A stretch of 64,000 bases of DNA from Patescibacteria group bacterium (GTDB lineage Bacteria > Patescibacteriota > Patescibacteriia > JAXHNJ01): the NCBI GenBank assembly GCA_034520665.1, contig JAXHNJ010000002.1, positions 179,166 through 243,165 of the forward strand, given 5' to 3'. Every line of letters begins with the position of its first letter. Position 1 is the stretch's first letter. Below, piece after piece: positions 1,611 to 56,140 of the stretch. Under the pieces are notes generated by a model. It did not search any database. It worked only from the letters and a program-made list of their open reading frames with translations, and was not told the DNA's origin. Made by a program: the position numbers and the translations under genes.

Positions 1611-1695
1611 ATTTAAATAATCCCTGGAAAAATAATCTAGGGATTTTTTATTAGACGTAAAAATTTTTATTTAGATTTATAAATTAATAATATAA

Positions 1696-1912
1696 AAAAT
1701 TCTAAGCGGACCCGATCTCCCTTTGGGAGACGATCTTCTCCGTGACCCCACACTATATTTGCTTCTTTCACAAGTGCAAAGCCGACAAAAGAGATACTAA
1801 AATTCTAAGCGGGCCCGATCTCCCTTCGGGAGACGATCTTCTCCGTGACCCCACACTATATTTGCTTCGCTCATATGTTTGGGGCAAGCAGGGAGATATA
1901 CTAAAATTCTAA
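1696..1912. repeat. Two tandem ~103-bp units, each a degenerate copy of the 3' part of the adjacent tRNA-Asp gene plus its 3' flank
   Basis: Units begin at 1701 and 1804 and share 68 nt (tctaagcggacccgatctccc-TTTG/TTCG-gggagacgatcttctccgtgacc...). Versus the real gene at 1914-1988 they keep the acceptor 3' strand, the variable region and the anticodon 3' stem. The T-arm hairpin is replaced by a different 6-bp GC hairpin, TCTCCC-loop-GGGAGA. Confidence 0.75.
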
Positions 1913-1913
1913 G

Positions 1914-1988
1914 CGGACCCGACGAGATTTGAACTCGCGATCTTCTCCGTGACAGGGAGATGTGTTAGACCAGCTACACCACGGGTCC
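1914..1988 (-). tRNA. tRNA-Asp (anticodon GTC)
   Basis: The reverse complement folds as a cloverleaf: acceptor GGACCCG/CGGGTCC, D-stem GTGT/ACAC, anticodon stem TCTCC/GGAGA with loop CTGTCAC, T-arm GCGAG-TTCAAAT-CTCGT. The gene is embedded in a 16-bp perfect inverted repeat, aattctaagcggaccc / gggtccgcttagaatt. Confidence 0.85.
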
Positions 1989-2135
1989 GCTTAGAATTCT
2001 TAGAGTATAAATATAAATTATTTTAAAATCCATTGCTTTAAATTGTAATAAATATATTAGCAGATAAATTATTATTTGTCTAGGTCAATTTATCATTAAT
2101 ATTTTTGCGAATTTATAATCTTTATCACTTTTCAC

Positions 2136-5100: not shown

Positions 5101-5375
5101 TACTTACCACAACCAGCATGAGTATAAATTAGACCTTCTGGGGTTATTTTACGAATAACATTATTATAAGTATCCGCTATATAAAGATTACCTGAAGCGT
5201 CAAAAGCCACGTCATGAGGAAAATCTAAAAAAGAATCAGTAGCCGGCCCGCCATCTCCGGCATAAAGCTTACCCACAAAAGTAGTAGTATCACCATAGGC
5301 GGCTAGAGCTTGACTGGAAAAAACAAAAAAAAGACCTAAAATTAGTAAAGGTAAAAATAAATAAATTTTTCTCAT
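2136..5375 (-). CDS. Secreted NHL-repeat protein with C-terminal FG-GAP/VCBS-like repeats (1079 aa, signal peptide)
   Basis: The N-terminal signal peptide is MRKIYLFLPLLILGLFFVFSSQALA. There are many YIADTGNNRIRKV-type NHL repeats. C-terminal repeats of the form GDVDGDG..EI..G...GGPHVR.FD are FG-GAP-like. Confidence 0.7.
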   Translation of the reverse strand: MRKIYLFLPLLILGLFFVFSSQALAAYGDTTTFVGKLYAGDGGPATDSFLDFPHDVAFDASGNLYIADTYNNVIRKITPEGLIYTHAGCGKYGYYNASAELSEFALPKGVTVDSSGNVFVADTGNNMIRKVDVYGSVSTYISSGLSSPEGILAQGDYLYIADTGNNAIKKVNRSNGAVYNLTTSISSPRKMAISSDGSTLYVADEGNNRVIKVNTSTGSVSLIAGSSTSAYEEGTGSNASFRMVYGIAYDASSGYLYVTDEDENRIGVIRKINPETGETTQFAYDSSMTSIYPTSGVRIHGDYIYLAGNGTIHRYNKNDASDNEVYVGSDRFGYRNGYSTSALIGRPYDMVKSPDGNYIYLAENNKIRKINLSTGYTSFVIGNSVDSYNNEEGTGSAARFSNISGITINSSGDTLYVADRWNNRIRGVNIANQSSFLVSGSGDTNVTGSGNGYQEGTKNTTLFDIPANLVISPDDQYLYVSDTGNNRIRKVRISDGQTWLIAGSGEAGFADGMGAAAKFNHPYGIDIDSSGQYLYVADRDNHRIRRVKISTGKVTTVAGDGRNGYLDGLASRAVFSYPVYVKYYANKVFVSESGSHRVRLVELNSDIVKLVAGSGTRGFHNSSRTDTKFNNLMGMVIDNDTKYLYVCDSWNDMIRKINIRGVAPYTSEAPVVSSVSPNRLSVTDNSDYQAYLDLYGQNFRHGATTYFGDHEAISYVKSSEQMTVVIPLGQMSGGYYDVKVENTDGQSDLLSVGFTVTNSSGQVPHIFYSLESGDGFKAYSSLYTGGVKTATADLDGDGTAEIVTGTSQGGGPHVRVFDSLGNIKSQFFAYQNSFRGGFNLDIGDVDGDGQKEIVTAAGPGGGPHVRIFDMNGNLENQFFAYALAFRRGVNLAVGDVNGDGVAEIATGTMGASAPHVRIFNGQGSLIDQFFAYPEHFRIGINVLISDVNNNGQGEVITAPYQSGGPHIRVFESNGNLISQFFAYAQAYRGGVNLASGDVDGNGTQEIITGTSFNKAPHVRMLDINGGVVGQFFAFSSSNRNGVYVSSGDVNNDGLDEIITSEMSGAPEVVQFDYMGYLIE

Positions 5376-5483
5376 AATTTTAAAATTTAATTTCTAATAA
5401 CTAATTTAATTATATAATAATTAGCTCATAAAAAAAAGAGGGCGAATGTTGGTACATCCGCCCTTAAAGTTCAATAAGTTCAA

Positions 5484-6890
5484 TTAATCCGGCAGATCCT
5501 CAGGATCTACCCGATATATGAATAATTTAGATTTTCCCTTCAATAGATTGAAGGTAAAATCTTTTGCCCCAAATAACTTTTTGGGGCGATTATAGCCAAC
5601 TTCTAGAAAGCCATTGGCTCGCATTTGGACCAAGAGCCATTTCTGGCCTTTATAAAGGGCTGGCTTCCATTCAAAGTAAGGCCCGTATTCATGTCTGAGC
5701 CTAAAAAGTGGGGCAAAGACCGGTGCTCCCTCAAGGATATAATCACCTTGGTGATCATTTTTGGGATATAATAAATTCTTACTATCCCAATTTACTACTG
5801 AAGAGAATTTACCAACTTTAGACACTTGGTAAAACCCTCCAATATTTATACCCTCTTGGACATTAATTAAGATCAACTCGCCTTTAAAGACGGGAAGAAA
5901 ATTATTTTCCCCGTCAAGGTCGAGATGTCTAACCAAACAATCGGTACTTTCAGGGGGTTTATAATCATTAGGAATCTCTATTCCCCGAGGATCAAAATTC
6001 TTTTCCTCTTCACTAACTCTTGTTTGTAAGTTAGTGCGAAAAGCCGAATTTTTCCAATTTTTTAAATCTATCTCAGGAAACAAATGAAACCATTTATAGC
6101 TTATAATAATTATTAGGATAATTAAAATTAAGCTAGCAAACTGACCCAGAGGATCTCTTTCTTTTTTAAATAAACCTAAAAACCATCTAAACACTAACCA
6201 CAAGAAAACTCCGATTAACATATAGTACCGAAATACTATATAAAAGATATGACTCAAGCTCATACCCTTAACAACCTCTGGTACAGGTAAATAATAGCCG
6301 AAAGCATTATTCATTATCAGAGCCGTAAGAACTAGAGGCACGATCGCTTCTTTTAATCCGGTTAAGAATAAAGCTATTACCAGAAGAGCTAGAAAAACTA
6401 GCTGTAAATTTTCCTTTGAAAATTGTATTACCACTCCACCGTATATTAAAAACAATCCGTAAATTAGCCACAGTAAGGCGCCGATAAATCCTATAGTACT
6501 TATTATTTTTCTCCACCGCCAATTCTTTACTTTTATAAACTCTAGAAATTTCTTTCTAGTAATACCATAAACTAATAAAGAAATAAGCAGATAAAAAATA
6601 ATAAATTGTTTTGAAAAAACAGAAGTTTCTTCTTTAACCACACTAGTTTTTTCAACTACCGGCTTTTCAACTACTTCTTGGGTTACCTGCTGAATGACTT
6701 CTTCTTCACTTCCGGAAAAAAATAAGACCTTCGGTGAAAAAATAGCAACAATCAAAAGGCTACCTAGGACAGTAATATAGATAATAGTACCAGTATGTTT
6801 ACGTAAGAACGAAATAGTTTCCCAATACTTCTTTTTTAGAAATTTCTGACAATGCTTACACAGCTTCCACTTGAATTTCATTTTCATCAA
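5484..6890 (-). CDS. Hypothetical polytopic membrane protein with a C-terminal soluble domain (468 aa)
   Basis: ORF track. Multiple hydrophobic helices in the N-terminal 300 aa. No recognisable catalytic motif. Confidence 0.5.
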   Translation of the reverse strand: MMKMKFKWKLCKHCQKFLKKKYWETISFLRKHTGTIIYITVLGSLLIVAIFSPKVLFFSGSEEEVIQQVTQEVVEKPVVEKTSVVKEETSVFSKQFIIFYLLISLLVYGITRKKFLEFIKVKNWRWRKIISTIGFIGALLWLIYGLFLIYGGVVIQFSKENLQLVFLALLVIALFLTGLKEAIVPLVLTALIMNNAFGYYLPVPEVVKGMSLSHIFYIVFRYYMLIGVFLWLVFRWFLGLFKKERDPLGQFASLILIILIIIISYKWFHLFPEIDLKNWKNSAFRTNLQTRVSEEEKNFDPRGIEIPNDYKPPESTDCLVRHLDLDGENNFLPVFKGELILINVQEGINIGGFYQVSKVGKFSSVVNWDSKNLLYPKNDHQGDYILEGAPVFAPLFRLRHEYGPYFEWKPALYKGQKWLLVQMRANGFLEVGYNRPKKLFGAKDFTFNLLKGKSKLFIYRVDPEDLPD

Positions 6891-8985: not shown

Positions 8986-9535
8986 TTTTCTCCACTCCCT
9001 TTCCTTTCAAGTAAAACAAAAAAAACATCAAATTCCGTGATTTATTTATTGGAGTAAACTCCTTTTTAAAGAACAAGTAAAGTTACAGACAATTATTTAT
9101 TGTTAGTAACTATAGAGATTAGCATTTATTGTTAGATTTGTCAAGTGCCAGTATAAATCTCACAAAAAATATAGCGATTTTTTTAGGAAAGAAATTAAAG
9201 ACTTAATTATAATAAGAATTGTCTTTCTTTTACGCGTAGGCGGAGATTCATCTCCGCTATAATTATTTTTTTTAAGAGCGTAGATGTCAGTCGCGACTGA
9301 CATCTACTAAATTATTTTAAGCATATTTCTACTCAACTTGTCCCGAGCTGCGCGAGGCGATCTAAATAGTGATAAACACTATAGTGTTAAAGTGCTAAAT
9401 AAAAGATTTATCTTTAATTAGCTCTATTTAATTATTAAAAACCGCCAGAAATATGTACCTAAAATTTAATAAAGTTTCCAGGGTTTACAAAATAAAAGTA
9501 TCAGTAGTAACTTTTATTTTTTAAAGATTTCTCTG

Positions 9536-19399: not shown

Positions 19400-19635
19400 C
19401 TCTCCTTAATAAAAAAACCCTGACTTCGGCAATTAAACAAGGGTTTTTAAAATTATTAAATCTTTCTACCGAAGATTTGTTATCTAAAAGGTGTCCTGGC
19501 TTACAGAGGATTGGCTCGTCAGCCCCTTCCCCTAAAAAAGAGTGGTTATGGCCGCCTGGCTTCTCTGCTTACAGTGACGGGATCGCGCCGGATTTGTTTT
19601 TGACTTAAAAGCAAAACGCACCGGTCTTCCCTTTT
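19400..19635 (-). promoter_or_regulatory. Cobalamin (B12) riboswitch with an intrinsic-terminator expression platform
   Basis: The minus strand reads ...GGTGCG...AAATCCGGCGCGATCCCGTCACTGTAAGCAGAGAAGCCAGGCGGCC.... This matches the cobalamin aptamer consensus (GAAUCCGG, the B12 box CCCGCCACUGUAA with one substitution, and AAGCCAGGA). A hairpin AACCCTTG...CAGGGTT plus a U7 tract is followed by the AAGGAG RBS of the DUF4430 gene. Confidence 0.8.
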
Positions 19636-19674
19636 TTTCTTAAAAATTTTATTTTTAAGAAAAATATTTAATTA

Positions 19675-20208
19675 TTAATATTCAATACCTTTTCTTGCTT
19701 TTAATCCCTGGTCAAAATAATGCTTGTTTTTATTCATGATAGTTACCAAATCTGCTAGCTTAATAATTTTATCATGAGCGTTTCTTCCCGTCAAAACAAT
19801 CTCTGTGGATAAAGAATTATTTTTTAAAAACTTAATGAGTCTATCTTTTTTTATTAAACCAAAATCAAGGGCCACATTAATTTCATCTAATATTACTAAA
19901 TTATATTTTTTATTTTTAATTTTTTTAATGGCATAGGCCAAGCCTTTTTCGGCTCTTTCAAAATCTTCTTTTTTTATTTTGCTCTTATCAATAAATTTAT
20001 GGCTACCAAATTGTTTAATTTCTAAATTATTAAATTTTTTTAAGGCCTTAATTTCACTATAATCTCCTTTTTTCATAAACTGTATAATCAGGACTCGAAA
20101 ACCAGCTCCTAAGGCCCTTAAAGCTAAGCCTAAAGCAGCTGTAGTTTTTCCCTTACCTTCTCCCGTATAAACTTGAATCATATTTAGCCTAATGAACAGG
20201 CTGACCAA
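19675..20208 (-). CDS. cobO: Cob(I)yrinic acid a,c-diamide / cob(I)alamin adenosyltransferase (CobO/BtuR family)
   Basis: IQVYTGEGKGKTTAALGLALRALGAGFRVLIIQFMKK is the BtuR P-loop signature. The start may be the internal ATG at 20181, directly after the nrdJ stop. Confidence 0.85.
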   Translation of the reverse strand: MVSLFIRLNMIQVYTGEGKGKTTAALGLALRALGAGFRVLIIQFMKKGDYSEIKALKKFNNLEIKQFGSHKFIDKSKIKKEDFERAEKGLAYAIKKIKNKKYNLVILDEINVALDFGLIKKDRLIKFLKNNSLSTEIVLTGRNAHDKIIKLADLVTIMNKNKHYFDQGLKARKGIEY

Positions 20209-37678: not shown

Positions 37679-37908
37679 AAAAATTTATATTTCTTTAAAA
37701 AACCTGGTGGGCCTAATAGGAGTTAAATCCCTCGATGCTACGCGGGAAAGGTTCTATGACCCTTTTAACTCTTTTAGTTTACTCTACCCTAGTAAAATGA
37801 CAAGTGAATATAAATGATATGGTGGACGATGAAGGACTTGTCACCCTACGGGTGATCCTCCGAAGGAGGAAACCAGAGACTTCTATCGCCCGCCTGCCAA
37901 AGCAGTCA

Positions 37909-37967
37909 TGGTCGCACCTGGACTTGAACCAGGGACTTCTATCGTGTGAGGATAGCGCTCTTACTCC
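37909..37967 (-). pseudogene. tRNA-like fragment with Val-CAC-like anticodon arm, T-arm and acceptor 3' strand. The 5' acceptor/D-arm is replaced by a GC hairpin element.
   Basis: The reverse complement reads GGAGTAAGAGCG-CTATC-CTCACAC-GATAG-AAGTC-CCTGG-TTCAAGT-CCAGG-TGCGACC-A. No matching 5' acceptor strand (GGTCGCA) is present. Instead it is preceded by the CGTCCCGC-TTT-GCGGGACG hairpin and GGATCC. Confidence 0.4.
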
Positions 37968-38033
37968 CGTCCCGCAAAGCGGGACGTGGATCCTCGAAGT
38001 TCTAGCGAAATCGAAGATTTCGATAACTTCGGG

Positions 38034-38105
38034 ACAGCTGAGCCCCGTCTCCCGCAGGGAGACGGGATCCCGATTTCCGACAAAGTCGGAACATCGGGAC
38101 TAATC
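38034..38105. repeat. 72-bp direct repeat, copy 1 of 2 (copy 2 at 38468-38539, one mismatch). Contains a perfect 10-bp-stem hairpin plus GGGATCC.
   Basis: acagctgagCCCCGTCTCCCgcaGGGAGACGGGatcccgatTTCCGACaaaGTCGGAAcatcgggactaatc occurs twice, 434 bp apart, bracketing the GIY-YIG gene and tRNA-Val. Confidence 0.85.
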
Positions 38106-38342
38106 GTTACATATTTTCTTAATTATTTTTGCGCTTTTCTTTTTTTTCAAAAATCTCTCTCTTTGATAAGCTGATTCTATATTAGGATATTTTTCTAATC
38201 TTACAAGAATGAAAGGCTGACGATGTTTTGTGGACTTGGATAATCCTTTATTATGTTCTGAAAAACGCTTATTAAAATTATTTGTTACCCCAATATAATA
38301 CTTAAAATCTTTTTGGCTTTTTAATATATAAACATAATACAT
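38100..38342 (-). CDS. GIY-YIG nuclease superfamily protein (80 aa)
   Basis: MYYVYILKSQKDFKYYIGVTNNFNKRFSEHNKG matches the GIY..YIG..R..EH motif. Confidence 0.8.
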   Translation of the reverse strand: MYYVYILKSQKDFKYYIGVTNNFNKRFSEHNKGLSKSTKHRQPFILVRLEKYPNIESAYQRERFLKKKKSAKIIKKICND

Positions 38343-38351
38343 ATTTTACTA

Positions 38352-38425
38352 TGGGCGCGATAGGACTTGAACCTATGACCTTACGGATGTGAACCGTACA
38401 CTCTGACCAGCTGAGCTACGCGCCC
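38352..38425 (-). tRNA. tRNA-Val (anticodon CAC)
   Basis: Reverse complement: GGGCGCG-TA-GCTC-AGCTGGTCA-GAGT-G-TACGG-TTCACAT-CCGTA-AGGTC-ATAGG-TTCAAGT-CCTAT-CGCGCCC-A. Confidence 0.85.
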
Positions 38426-38467
38426 CTAGTTCATCCTGACGAACAGACATAAAAAGTTTATTCTAAA

Positions 38468-38539
38468 ACAGCTGAGCCCCGTCTCCCGCAGGGAGACGGG
38501 ATCCCGATTTCCGATAAAGTCGGAACATCGGGACTAATC
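38468..38539. repeat. 72-bp direct repeat, copy 2 (see 38034-38105)
   Basis: Identical to copy 1 except gacaaag/gataaag. It lies just 5' (on the minus strand) of tRNA-Val. Confidence 0.85.
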
Positions 38540-39226
38540 ATCCACGAAAACGGAAACTAAATACATTTTTAAATCAATCTTTTGGCTAAAATAAACCAAA
38601 GATAGGCAAATTATAGCATAAAAAAAGAGCTAAATCAAATAAAAATTTTGCTTATTATATTTACTTTATTATTTTTTGTCATTTTTTTTAATATACATCA
38701 TCTTTTTATTATAACTGATAAGAATGGCATTAAAAATAGTAAGATACAAATTATTTTATAGCATTAAAACATAAGCGAAAGTTTATAAAGTTTTATTATT
38801 ATTAACCTATAATATTACTTACAATTTATTCAGGCCGTTATATAACCACATGAAATCAAAAAAACAACATAATTCAATATAAAATACTTGATCATCAAGA
38901 TTAACACTATTTGAGCTAGAAGTATAATAAATTATCGTTAAGATTTTCAGAAAATAATATAAAATTTTACTCCCAATTTTTATGAGTTATTATTTTATAA
39001 AAATTTAAATTACTATCCTTTTATAATTACTCTGTAATAAAAATTAATTTTATTTATTATATCATCAGAATTGTCAACACTACTATTTTTACCTACTGGT
39101 AAGAATTCAAAGTTAGCCACATATTTTCATAATTATGAGGGTCACTGTTTTAACTATTGCCTGGATTATATTTTTCTGGTGGTTTATTTTTTCTTTTGTC
39201 TTACGGCCGCCAAAAAGAAAATGTGT

Positions 39227-54083: not shown

Positions 54084-54190
54084 AATACTTGACCTTTGGT
54101 ATTATTTTTGTTAAGATAGATTGTAAATACTCTAACAAAAAAATAGCGTGGAGTGGGATCCTGTCCCTTTTCAAAGAAAGAGTAGTATAT

Positions 54191-54362
54191 TGAAAAACTT
54201 GAAAATATAAAGACATCATCAATCTTAACAACATCGCGGGGTGGAGTCCCGTCCCGTTGAGCGGGACGAGGATCCGCGTTATCATCATATAACGATGATA
54301 ACGGGACAGTGGTATATTGAAAAACTTGAAATAAAAAAAGATATCATCAATCTTAACAACAT
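54191..54362. repeat. Partial duplication of the tRNA-fMet 5' flank plus its first 12 nt, fused to GC hairpin elements
   Basis: gaaaaacttgaaa...atcatcaatcttaacaacatCGCGGGGTGGAG occurs at 54191-54245 and again at 54318-54375 (the real gene). The first copy continues into TCCCGTCCCG-TTGA-GCGGGACG-AGGATCC and a 10-bp-stem hairpin, CGTTATCATC-atataac-GATGATAACG. Confidence 0.75.
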
Positions 54363-54437
54363 CGCGGGGTGGAGCAGTGGCAGCTCGCCGGGCTCATAAT
54401 CCGGAGGTCGAGGGTTCGAATCCCTCCCCCGCAACCA
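54363..54437 (+). tRNA. tRNA-Met (anticodon CAT), initiator-like, CCA encoded
   Basis: CGCGGGG-TG-GAGC-AGTGGCA-GCTC-G-CCGGG-CTCATAA-TCCGG-AGGTC-GAGGG-TTCGAAT-CCCTC-CCCCGCA-A-CCA. The C1xA72 mismatch is typical of the bacterial initiator. Confidence 0.8.
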
Positions 54438-54462: not shown

Positions 54463-54906
54463 GCCAGGGTAGCTCTCGCCCGCTAGCGCCTGAGCGCAAG
54501 CGATGGCGAGCGGGTAGTTGATTAGAGCGTATATTAAATTTTAAAAGCTAAATTATACTACTATAAATTATAAGCCAGGGTAGCTCTCGCCCGCTAGCGC
54601 CTGAGCGCAAGCGATGGCGAGCGGGTAGTTGATTAGAGCGTATATTAAATTTTAAAAGCTAAATTATACTACTATAAATTATAAGCCAGGGTAGCTCTCG
54701 CCCGCTAGCGCCTGAGCGCAAGCGATGGCGAGCGGGTAGTTGATTAGAGCGTATATTAAATTTTAAAAGCTAAATTATACTACTATAAATTATAAGCCAG
54801 GGTAGCTCTCGCCCGCTAGCGCCTGAGCGCAAGCGATGGCGAGCGGGTAGTTGATTAGAGCGTATATTAAATTTTAAAAGCTAAATTATACTACTATAAA
54901 TTATAA
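54463..54906. repeat. Tandem array of four identical 111-bp units, each beginning with the first 13 nt of the downstream tRNA-Met gene
   Basis: Units start at 54463, 54574, 54685 and 54796. Each reads GCCAGGGTAGCTC + tcgcccgctagcgcctgagcgcaagcgatggcgagcgggtag + ttgattagagcg + a 40-nt AT-rich tail. A fifth unit at 54907 is the intact tRNA. Not CRISPR-like: there are no unique spacers. Confidence 0.9.
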
Positions 54907-54983
54907 GCCAGGGTAGCTCAGTTGGTTAGAGCACGGGACTCATAAGCCCGGGGTCGTGGGTTCGAATCCCACCCCTGGTACCA
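54907..54983 (+). tRNA. tRNA with CAT anticodon (elongator Met, or Ile2/lysidine type), CCA encoded
   Basis: GCCAGGG-TA-GCTC-AGTTGGTTA-GAGC-A-CGGGA-CTCATAA-GCCCG-GGGTC-GTGGG-TTCGAAT-CCCAC-CCCTGGT-A-CCA. Confidence 0.8.
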
Positions 54984-55924: not shown

Positions 55925-56140
55925 TTTATGTCAAGAAAAAAGAAATACTCCGATGCCCTCCCGGTCCGCCGCACAAGACTTTGGCAGGCGGGGCCTCGGA
56001 GCTTGACCATTAATAAAGATTTGGCTGCGCTGAGTCCTGCACGCCGAAGCCTATCATATTATTAGTTTACTTATAATTTAGGCTCCGCTATCCTTCCCCA
56101 AGGCCAAGTATTGGGGCTGGCCGCGAAGGCGTGTCAACCA
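55925..56140. ncRNA. GC-rich (~55-60% GC in a ~33% GC genome) structured island. Candidate small RNA of unknown class; strand undetermined.
   Basis: Multiple GC helices are visible, for example CCCCAA-ggccaagta-TTGGGG with a possible pseudoknot to CTGGCC, and CGGAGC...GCTCCG. It has no coding potential longer than 26 aa. It lies between two minus-strand genes. Confidence 0.3.

Follow-up and report, generated by a model that had tools for sequence, protein, structure and literature searches.

In a 64-kb stretch of the genome of a Patescibacteria group bacterium (the window), the gene for tRNA-Asp(GTC) lies within a perfect inverted repeat and is followed on its 3' side by two tandem, partial, and modified copies of itself, which we call units A and B. 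We propose that this array is young, lineage-specific debris from DNA rearrangement at a break-prone tRNA gene and that it has no dedicated RNA function; we hold this view with about even confidence. The best reading of the debris is that it arose by fold-back copying, tandem duplication, and patch replacement. The same process appears to have acted at the genes for tRNA-Val, tRNA-fMet, and tRNA-Met, and the Asp array belongs to a broader instability of tRNA loci that is specific to this lineage. Four of the five tRNA genes in the window (Asp, Val, fMet, and Met) bear fresh partial copies and only tRNA-Leu is plain. When the window was compared with itself, every non-coding direct repeat was at one of those four genes. 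The window has a GC content of 34% and encodes ordinary bacterial housekeeping genes. We scanned 82 kb for repeats, hairpins, and mobile-element genes (the window and another 18 kb of flanking sequence), and the extra 18 kb contained no tRNAs and no such arrays.

The intact tRNA-Asp gene is at 1914..1988 on the minus strand (ARAGORN and Rfam place its lower boundary at 1913/1914, and the Rfam tRNA model scores 66 bits). It does not encode the CCA end, as CTT follows the discriminator G. After the discriminator comes the trailer CTTAGAATT, which exactly complements the 10 nt immediately before the gene, so the acceptor stem and its flanks form an inverted repeat that is perfect over 17 nt (the 7-bp acceptor stem and 10 bp of leader and trailer). 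On the minus strand, its 5' arm (1982..1998; found by repeat search, folding, and alignment) consists of the leader AATTCTAAGC and the 5' acceptor strand GGACCCG, and its 3' arm (1905..1921; found by repeat search) consists of the 3' acceptor strand CGGGTCC, the discriminator G, and the trailer. The first-pass annotation had placed the genuine gene within a perfect 16-bp inverted repeat that extends the acceptor stem into both flanks. The repeat search and the fold support both the arrangement and the perfection, but the repeat is 17 nt long. Imperfect complementarity between the leader and the trailer continues to about 2012: if the trailer is aligned to the reverse complement of the leader, then 10 perfect nt are followed by about 9 matches in the next 14 nt, with two indels. 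The gene and its flanks fold at -44.8 kcal/mol (z = -5.6), and the 17-mer AATTCTAAGCGGNCCCG occurs 4 times in the window, versus 0.07 times expected.

Unit A is proximal to the gene (1801..1904, 104 nt) and unit B is distal (1698..1800, 103 nt); both were identified on the minus strand by repeat search and alignment, they share one architecture, and the period of the array is 103/104. Tandem Repeats Finder overlooked this array, but a general repeat search and BLAST recovered it. The earlier description of two ~103-bp units that repeat the 3' parts of tRNA-Asp is borne out by these coordinates and by local alignments of the units to the tRNA (z = 14-16 versus shuffles; 0 of 300 shuffles were as good). 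Read along the tRNA strand, each unit consists of nt 26-34 of the tRNA, a 39-nt palindrome, nt 35-50, a hairpin patch, and then the 3' acceptor strand, the discriminator, and 17 or more nt of trailer. The tRNA parts that had been listed before are all present, with nt 26-34 and the palindrome in the anticodon loop as additional components. Nucleotides 26-34 (ATCTCCCTG) are intact in unit A and decayed in unit B. Similarly, an imperfect palindrome is at 1850..1888 in unit A (minus strand; seen in the sequence and the fold) and its decayed counterpart is at about 1747-1786 in unit B (minus strand; seen in the sequence and the alignment). A direct-repeat search found nt 35-50, the tRNA-identical 16-mer GTCACGGAGAAGATCG, at 1834..1849 in unit A and at 1731-1746 in unit B (both minus strand). 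It covers the 3' side of the anticodon loop, the 3' strand of the anticodon stem, and the variable loop. Both this 16-mer and TCGGGYCCGCTTAGAATTTTAGTAT are common to the two units and tRNA-Asp, and the direct repeats of the 3' end of tRNA-Asp include identical stretches of 16 nt and roughly 25 nt.

In both units, 15 nt of the T arm (CGAGTTCAAATCTCG) are swapped for 15 nt of hairpin, which keeps the length exactly. On the minus strand, the hairpin patch is TCTCCC-GAA-GGGAGA in unit A (1819..1833) and has the loop AAA in unit B (1716..1730). Thus, the exact replacement of the T-arm hairpin and the different loops in the two copies had been recognized correctly, although the loops read GAA and AAA in the tRNA sense. 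As for the UUCG tetraloop that had been ascribed to one copy, it is present on the antisense strand only, and there it is out of register with the best stem. The duplication, the exact replacement of the T arm, the insertion into the anticodon loop, and a 3' flank that is rebuilt as an inverted leader agree with the earlier view that this is not random decay. But that view also invoked repeated insertion events. Because both units share the same two modifications, a single modified unit was duplicated, and two independent insertions are not supported. We also considered whether the array was a CRISPR array, but the conserved part is about 68-77 nt and is derived from the tRNA, the seemingly variable part of unit B is a decayed copy of that part of unit A, and no cas domains turned up in Pfam scans.

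The window is from a metagenome-assembled genome, so mis-assembled reads around the tRNA might in principle have given rise to the tandem units, and the copy number of the perfectly identical 111-bp array at tRNA-Met (see below) in particular is tentative. However, run SRR26473340 was assembled independently into Logan contigs, and their sequence is identical to that of the window. The first of them covers the left flank and continues into unit B, with that unit's own TTT loop variant, before it ends at about 1754. The other starts at about 1839 in unit A, contains tRNA-Asp, and ends at about 38064, inside another repeat. The contigs break where units A and B become identical for more than 31 nt, which is where a k-mer assembler must stop because the copies are identical beyond k. 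The two units are also anchored as distinct copies by the 18 positions at which they differ. The independent contigs speak against the concern raised with the first-pass annotation, that the repeat might be an artefact of the assembly. We consider an artefact to be an unlikely source of the array, and mis-assembly of reads around the tRNA, specifically, to be extremely improbable.

We compared the window to loci from relatives that were matched via orthologues of neighboring proteins (L010, L016, L018/L020, L023, and L024). The gene upstream of tRNA-Asp encodes a large NHL/FG-GAP protein with a graded series of orthologues, and two relatives have contigs that reach past this gene: L016 (76% protein identity) and L018/L020 (67%). 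In both, tRNA-Asp occupies the same position and has an encoded CCA, with a terminator hairpin and then the next gene immediately after it. Neither the units nor the inverted repeat of leader and trailer are present at the orthologous locus in L016 or L018/L020; the 3' arm of the inverted repeat stands where these relatives have CCA and the terminator. Since two syntenic relatives keep a plain tRNA-Asp, the loss of CCA is young and lineage-specific, as are the array and the inverted repeat. Furthermore, the units contain bases that are peculiar to the window's own tRNA-Asp allele (A26, the TCTCC/GGAGA anticodon stem, and the AGATC variable loop). The resident gene must therefore have served as their template, once the lineages had diverged. 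CCA was lost at both of the tRNAs whose 3' flanks are rearranged (Asp, 1914-1988, and Val, 38352-38425), and it is kept by their orthologues in L016, L018, and L024. In contrast, tRNA-fMet and tRNA-Met, which have arrays on the 5' side, retain an encoded CCA. (We also tried to use the neighboring gene for a 161-aa protein for synteny, but it is not conserved and is uninformative for tRNA-Asp.)

A search of GTDB species genomes for the exact pattern of the segment shared by the tRNA and the units gave only 8 matches, which were from unrelated taxa and not from any close relative. Exact scans of JGI metagenomes and of IMG/VR for the chimeric junction gave no match, and neither did scans of IMG/VR for the hairpin modules. 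A scan of metagenomes by protein gave a single locus, which was already among the known ones. Even at permissive thresholds, Rfam has no family that matches the units, the Met arrays, the region downstream of tRNA-Val, or the GC-rich region at 55.9-56.1 kb.

At the Met locus, 4.1 identical units of 111 bp lie upstream of tRNA-Met(CAT) (array at 54463..54919, plus strand, found by repeat search and BLAST; gene at 54907-54983). Each unit has nt 1-13 of the tRNA, followed by a 40-nt GC hairpin that sits just before A14; nt 14-26 come next, and 45 nt from the upstream flank complete the unit. As this array is perfect, its number of copies is beyond what short reads could resolve. tRNA-fMet, too, has an array on its upstream side, of two units of about 127 bp (array at 54141..54362, plus strand, identified from the sequence; gene at 54363-54437). 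Each is made of flank, nt 1-12 of the tRNA, a twin-hairpin insert that is joined at GGATCC, and AGTGG. In the younger fMet unit the twin-hairpin insert is at 54247-54305, and the older unit is decayed. We dropped the idea that the pieces are split tRNA genes whose products are trans-spliced, as the complementary partner half is absent from the window.

The Val locus (37820..38539, minus strand, found by repeat search) is more complex. A 72-nt module, which consists of a tRNA-Val fragment and a twin hairpin, occurs twice (38034-38105 and 38468-38539), 434 bp apart. The two modules flank an intact tRNA-Val (38352-38425) and an 80-aa GIY-YIG open reading frame (ORF; 38342..38100). Downstream are a decayed second tRNA-Val allele (about 37909-38040), with twin hairpin inserts in its D arm, and a copy of the 3' half of tRNA-Val (37820-37900) with a twin hairpin in its T loop. 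The more distant L024 (LepB 63% identical) has just one plain tRNA-Val with CCA (2882-2958), between the genes for a glycosyltransferase and LepB, and we take this arrangement to represent the ancestral state. In the sister genome L023 (LepB 89% identical; 5300-5600), the ancestral-type allele is split, with its 5' and 3' halves around a complete second tRNA-Val allele, and TCCG is present at both junctions of the nested allele. The window has the reverse: the ancestral-type allele is intact, without CCA, and the second allele is wrecked by twin hairpins. Both of the nested alleles are tRNA-Val(CAC). We also considered whether the region downstream of tRNA-Val encodes a transfer-messenger RNA, because of its T-loop-like and ACCA ends, but neither ARAGORN nor Rfam finds one, and L023 shows that it is a decayed tRNA-Val. 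A promoter-like box (TGCTATAAT) and a leader hairpin (TTTGGCTTATTTTAGCCAAA) precede the Val locus in all three genomes (window 38570-38625, minus strand; L023 5215-5275; L024 2825-2870), and the whole scrambled region is probably within one old transcription unit.

The GIY-YIG ORF, which is the only one in the window, is a stand-alone gene that begins 10 nt beyond tRNA-Val and has a stop codon that overlaps the 72-nt repeat. It matches the Pfam family with E = 2e-17. A GIY-YIG nuclease of phages, SegB, cuts inside phage tRNA genes, and tRNA and segB are amplified in tandem through microhomology (PMC13096335). In phage T6, the tandemly amplified unit is 718 bp and contains tRNA-Tyr and segB (PMC13096335; PMC2330249). 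The 434-bp segment with tRNA-Val and GIY-YIG between the 72-nt repeats parallels this unit. Unlike the phage system, the setting is the chromosome of one of the Patescibacteria, the Asp units are partial, dead pieces, the Asp locus has no nuclease gene, and the GIY-YIG protein in the window is predicted to be a catalytic domain of 80 aa only. Separately, in L010, an 84-aa GIY-YIG ORF (5353-5607) lies between tRNA-Gly and two tRNA-Leu genes, which recalls the association of SegB with phage tRNAs. Also in L010, a 22-nt inverted repeat follows tRNA-Gly and includes the last 6 nt of the tRNA (5118-5345); AT-rich DNA of ~100 nt separates its arms, and beyond it the 3' end of the tRNA occurs a second time (CCCGCTCCA).

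The anticodon arm, where the Asp copy starts, is a common crossover region of integrating elements. We asked if the units might be 3' parts of the tRNA that were displaced by successive integrations (attR-type remnants), with the interiors of the elements deleted later. Duplicated 3' parts of a tRNA are the classic footprint of such elements, and as in those cases, the Asp locus has partial, non-functional copies of the 3' part in direct orientation downstream of an intact gene (PMC9897764). The position at which the copy starts fits as well, and the nested Val alleles in the sister genomes show that foreign DNA bearing tRNAs has entered such loci. However, a displaced 3' part should keep a working T arm, and both units share the same non-functional hairpin instead, so they are copies of each other and not independent footprints. 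Each unit also contains about 40 nt of non-tRNA DNA and has the specific bases of the resident allele. The 103-nt spacing, the replaced T arm, and the arrays on the 5' side are unlike the known fragments, and integrases do not normally produce 5' copies such as those at tRNA-fMet and tRNA-Met. Finally, neither an element nor an integrase is nearby: Pfam and precomputed annotations show no integrase within about 10 kb on either side of the Asp locus, which is consistent with debris. Overall, we think it improbable that the units are remnants of integrated elements.

The inserts in the spare tRNA pieces are a family of single or back-to-back hairpins that start with TC and end with GA. Where two of them abut, GGATCC arises, with its central GATC because a hairpin that ends in GA meets a hairpin that starts with TC; this accounts for 5 of the 8 GGATCC sites in the window. 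(We rejected an explanation of GATC/GGATCC in terms of restriction sites, as GATC is at its expected frequency, with a ratio of 1.00.) TCTCCC-NNN-GGGAGA occurs at 4 sites, versus 0.11 expected, and is found only in the Asp units and the Val module. On either side of the Val copy of this hairpin are CCCG and CGGGATC, similar to the CCCGA and CGATC that border the T arm of tRNA-Asp (plus strand). Another hairpin, GTCCCG-N5-CGGGAC (with GGATCC), is common to the Val and fMet inserts (twice, versus 0.00 expected; alignment z = 11.6), so there is clear homology between the fMet insert and one of the Val inserts. In the D loop, the inserts are directly before A14 (in the fMet and Met units) or after GCTCAGCTG (in the pseudo-Val). 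On the T side, they are between T55 and C56 (in the 3' half of Val) or replace the T arm (in the Asp units). An intergenic region at 55940-56140 is GC-rich and structured, has no match in Rfam, and has the 14-mer CTTTGGCAGGCGGG in common with the linker that follows the decayed tRNA-Val. It ends in GAGCTTGACCA, and a Logan contig stops there, at about 56066. This region may be another graveyard of tRNA fragments or an unannotated RNA.

These hairpins could be a non-autonomous mobile element: TC...GA palindromes, often joined at GGATCC, that insert at loop-coding positions of tRNA-like DNA and survive in spare, truncated copies. The Asp units would then be colonized copies, or an early stage of a mobile element that is derived from a tRNA. 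Related modules are present at three tRNA loci within the 82 kb, in both orientations relative to the tRNA; they sit exactly at loop positions, with the flanking tRNA bases intact; they fold far better than shuffles (z from -5.5 to -7); and the sister genome L023 retains an orthologous hairpin. But the flanking tRNA bases are contiguous, with no target-site duplications, and there are no terminal inverted repeats beyond the hairpin itself. Among the ORFs in the 82 kb that we scanned against Pfam, there is no transposase or RAYT-like gene. The copies are at tRNA loci only, with none elsewhere in the 82 kb, in the relatives' loci, or in the viral and metagenome collections that we scanned. And at Asp, the change is a replacement of equal length, not an insertion. 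A mobile hairpin is therefore an unlikely explanation, in our view. We would give about the same small chance to a broader, undescribed system of selfish DNA at tRNA genes, in which small tRNA cassettes, sometimes with a minimal GIY-YIG gene, enter and replace the resident genes for their own isoacceptors and TC...GA twin hairpins home to loops. If so, the Asp units may be a live intermediate or an expressed decoy RNA, and not inert debris.

Returning to debris from rearrangement as our preferred explanation, we propose that the array formed as follows; the outcome of each event is shown by the sequences, and the routes are our proposals. The ancestral locus consisted of the NHL/FG-GAP gene, tRNA-Asp with CCA, and a terminator. 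The DNA after base 73 was then replaced by an inverted copy of the leader, which made the perfect 17-bp inverted repeat, with loss of CCA and the terminator. A break at the 3' end, followed by fold-back (snap-back) priming on the acceptor-stem repeat, could account for this, as could a quasi-palindrome template switch. Next, the region from nt 26 of the tRNA to about +27 was duplicated in tandem, which left one intact gene, and the spare copy gained the 39-nt palindrome in the anticodon loop and the 15-nt hairpin in place of 15 nt of the T arm. The hairpin patch was likely templated from a Val-type hairpin via the flanking microhomologies CCCG and CG..ATC, by short-patch illegitimate recombination (bioRxiv 10.1101/2023.11.22.568220). 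Lastly, the modified unit was duplicated again to give units A and B. Slippage or unequal exchange could account for the duplications at Asp. More speculatively, and by analogy with phage SegB only, the breaks might have been made by the small GIY-YIG nuclease that is encoded beside tRNA-Val.

Several observations weigh against this proposal. The differences between units A and B are clustered: 16 of the 18, mostly transitions, are within the 5' 36 columns of the alignment, and the other 2 are within the 3' 68 columns (Fisher p = 2.6e-7). Seven of the changes are in a predicted 5' helix, and all seven are one-sided and maintain pairing via G-U, which holds on the tRNA-sense strand only. Such a pattern is more suggestive of constraint, or of gene conversion, than of unconstrained decay. 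Also, the patch and the segment of the T arm that it replaced are of equal length, which a random process does not predict. The GC hairpins are not copied from adjacent sequence, so local fold-back alone is insufficient to make them. There is no nuclease gene near the Asp locus, and the GIY-YIG protein beside tRNA-Val has a catalytic domain only, without a DNA-binding domain.

Some of these observations would fit a functional RNA, in which the units belong to the tRNA-Asp transcript and are under selection, either as a structured trailer or as a decoy that resembles a tRNA half. In the trailer variant, the 3' strands of the units would pair alternatively with the 5' leader and acceptor strand and so tune processing or stability; in the decoy variant, the units would present the segment with the anticodon stem and variable loop. 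Scans of the window for promoters and terminators were uninformative, given its AT-rich DNA. The terminator scan detected no minus-strand terminator past the Asp array, and the only candidate stop is a terminator-like hairpin at 1619..1645, which was flagged on the plus strand and ends the convergent 161-aa ORF. The units are probably transcribed along with the tRNA as its 3' trailer, and the transcript may use that hairpin as its stop. Besides the near-identical 68-column core and the exact length of the hairpin, each unit ends in the 17-mer, which is able to pair with the leader and does so when the region is folded as a whole. The seven changes break no pair, but this is a weak signal: under AT-biased mutation, we estimate a probability of about 0.03 or more that 7 of 7 transitions would leave the pairing intact. 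Just two sequences are compared, with 0 double changes, so there is no true covariation, and the pattern of differences could also stem from AT-biased C-to-T mutation or from conversion between the copies. Still, that pattern may leave room for a role at the RNA level.

Other results do not suggest a functional RNA. The units fold no better than shuffles (z from -1.1 to -1.5). ARAGORN calls only the intact gene, and no tRNA match to the units was found in Rfam at E ≤ 10, so we did not see any tRNA-like cloverleaf in them. A fold of the units had been proposed as a check for a minihelix. The units lack a 5' acceptor strand, and their 3' strand is unpaired in minimum free energy folds, so they are unable to form one. 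Nor does the hairpin in the units resemble an intrinsic terminator, as the next bases are CGGGYCCGC rather than a run of U. The units are missing at the orthologous locus in both relatives that we examined, and at tRNA-fMet and tRNA-Met the analogous arrays are 5' of the gene and are built from other parts of the tRNA, which argues against one specific RNA function. We do not expect the units to be a functional RNA, although we give this idea a small share of our belief.

The Asp array is best filed as partial copies of a tRNA gene that arose by local rearrangement, which is a known kind of event. What is unusual is the exact substitution of a hairpin for a loop region, the presence of arrays on both the 5' and 3' sides, and the reciprocal nesting of alleles. 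In the Ripley/Lovett model, quasi-palindrome template-switch and fold-back mutations reportedly correct a few bases in most cases. The extension of an imperfect acceptor-stem repeat to a perfect 17 bp, by copying the complement of one flank, is of this type. But at Asp, the copied stretch is at least 10 nt and probably about 23 nt long, and there was tandem duplication as well. REP/BIME, MITE/PATE, and the palindromic elements of Rickettsia are also short, GC-rich, related palindromes that can be inside RNA genes. Unlike them, the hairpins in the 82 kb are in tRNA fragments only, are at loop sites only, and have no target duplication or transposase. The split, permuted, and multi-intron tRNA genes of archaea join pieces of tRNA to GC-rich stems at D-, anticodon-, and T-loop positions, as here. 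However, this is a bacterium, there is no bulge-helix-bulge and no partner half in the window, each locus has an intact gene, and the hairpin inserts are self-contained, not exon-intron structures of the archaeal type. Tandem duplication in mitochondrial genomes also leaves decaying pseudo-tRNA copies around tRNA genes, but spare copies of the Asp type were partial from the outset and were modified by hairpins rather than by point decay.

We also note two other features of the window. There is a cobalamin riboswitch at 19469-19679 (minus strand, 72.9 bits), upstream of DUF4430/DUF6580 genes, and it adjoins the genes for a corrinoid adenosyltransferase and a class II-type ribonucleotide reductase. 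The other feature is a 28-nt palindrome without mismatches, GTAGATGTCAGTCGCGACTGACATCTAC, at 9280-9307 between genes. It is probably a bidirectional terminator and is unrelated to the TC...GA hairpins.

In practice, arrays of this kind break short-read assemblies and can mislead the annotation of tRNAs. If the array is only debris from local slippage, then it is a curiosity of one lineage. But the genomes of Patescibacteria are tiny and have single-copy tRNA genes, so repeatedly breaking and rebuilding these genes is risky and should be rare. If the rearrangements were triggered by a nuclease or by a hairpin that targets tRNA genes, then they would show a route for the turnover of essential RNA genes in streamlined genomes.

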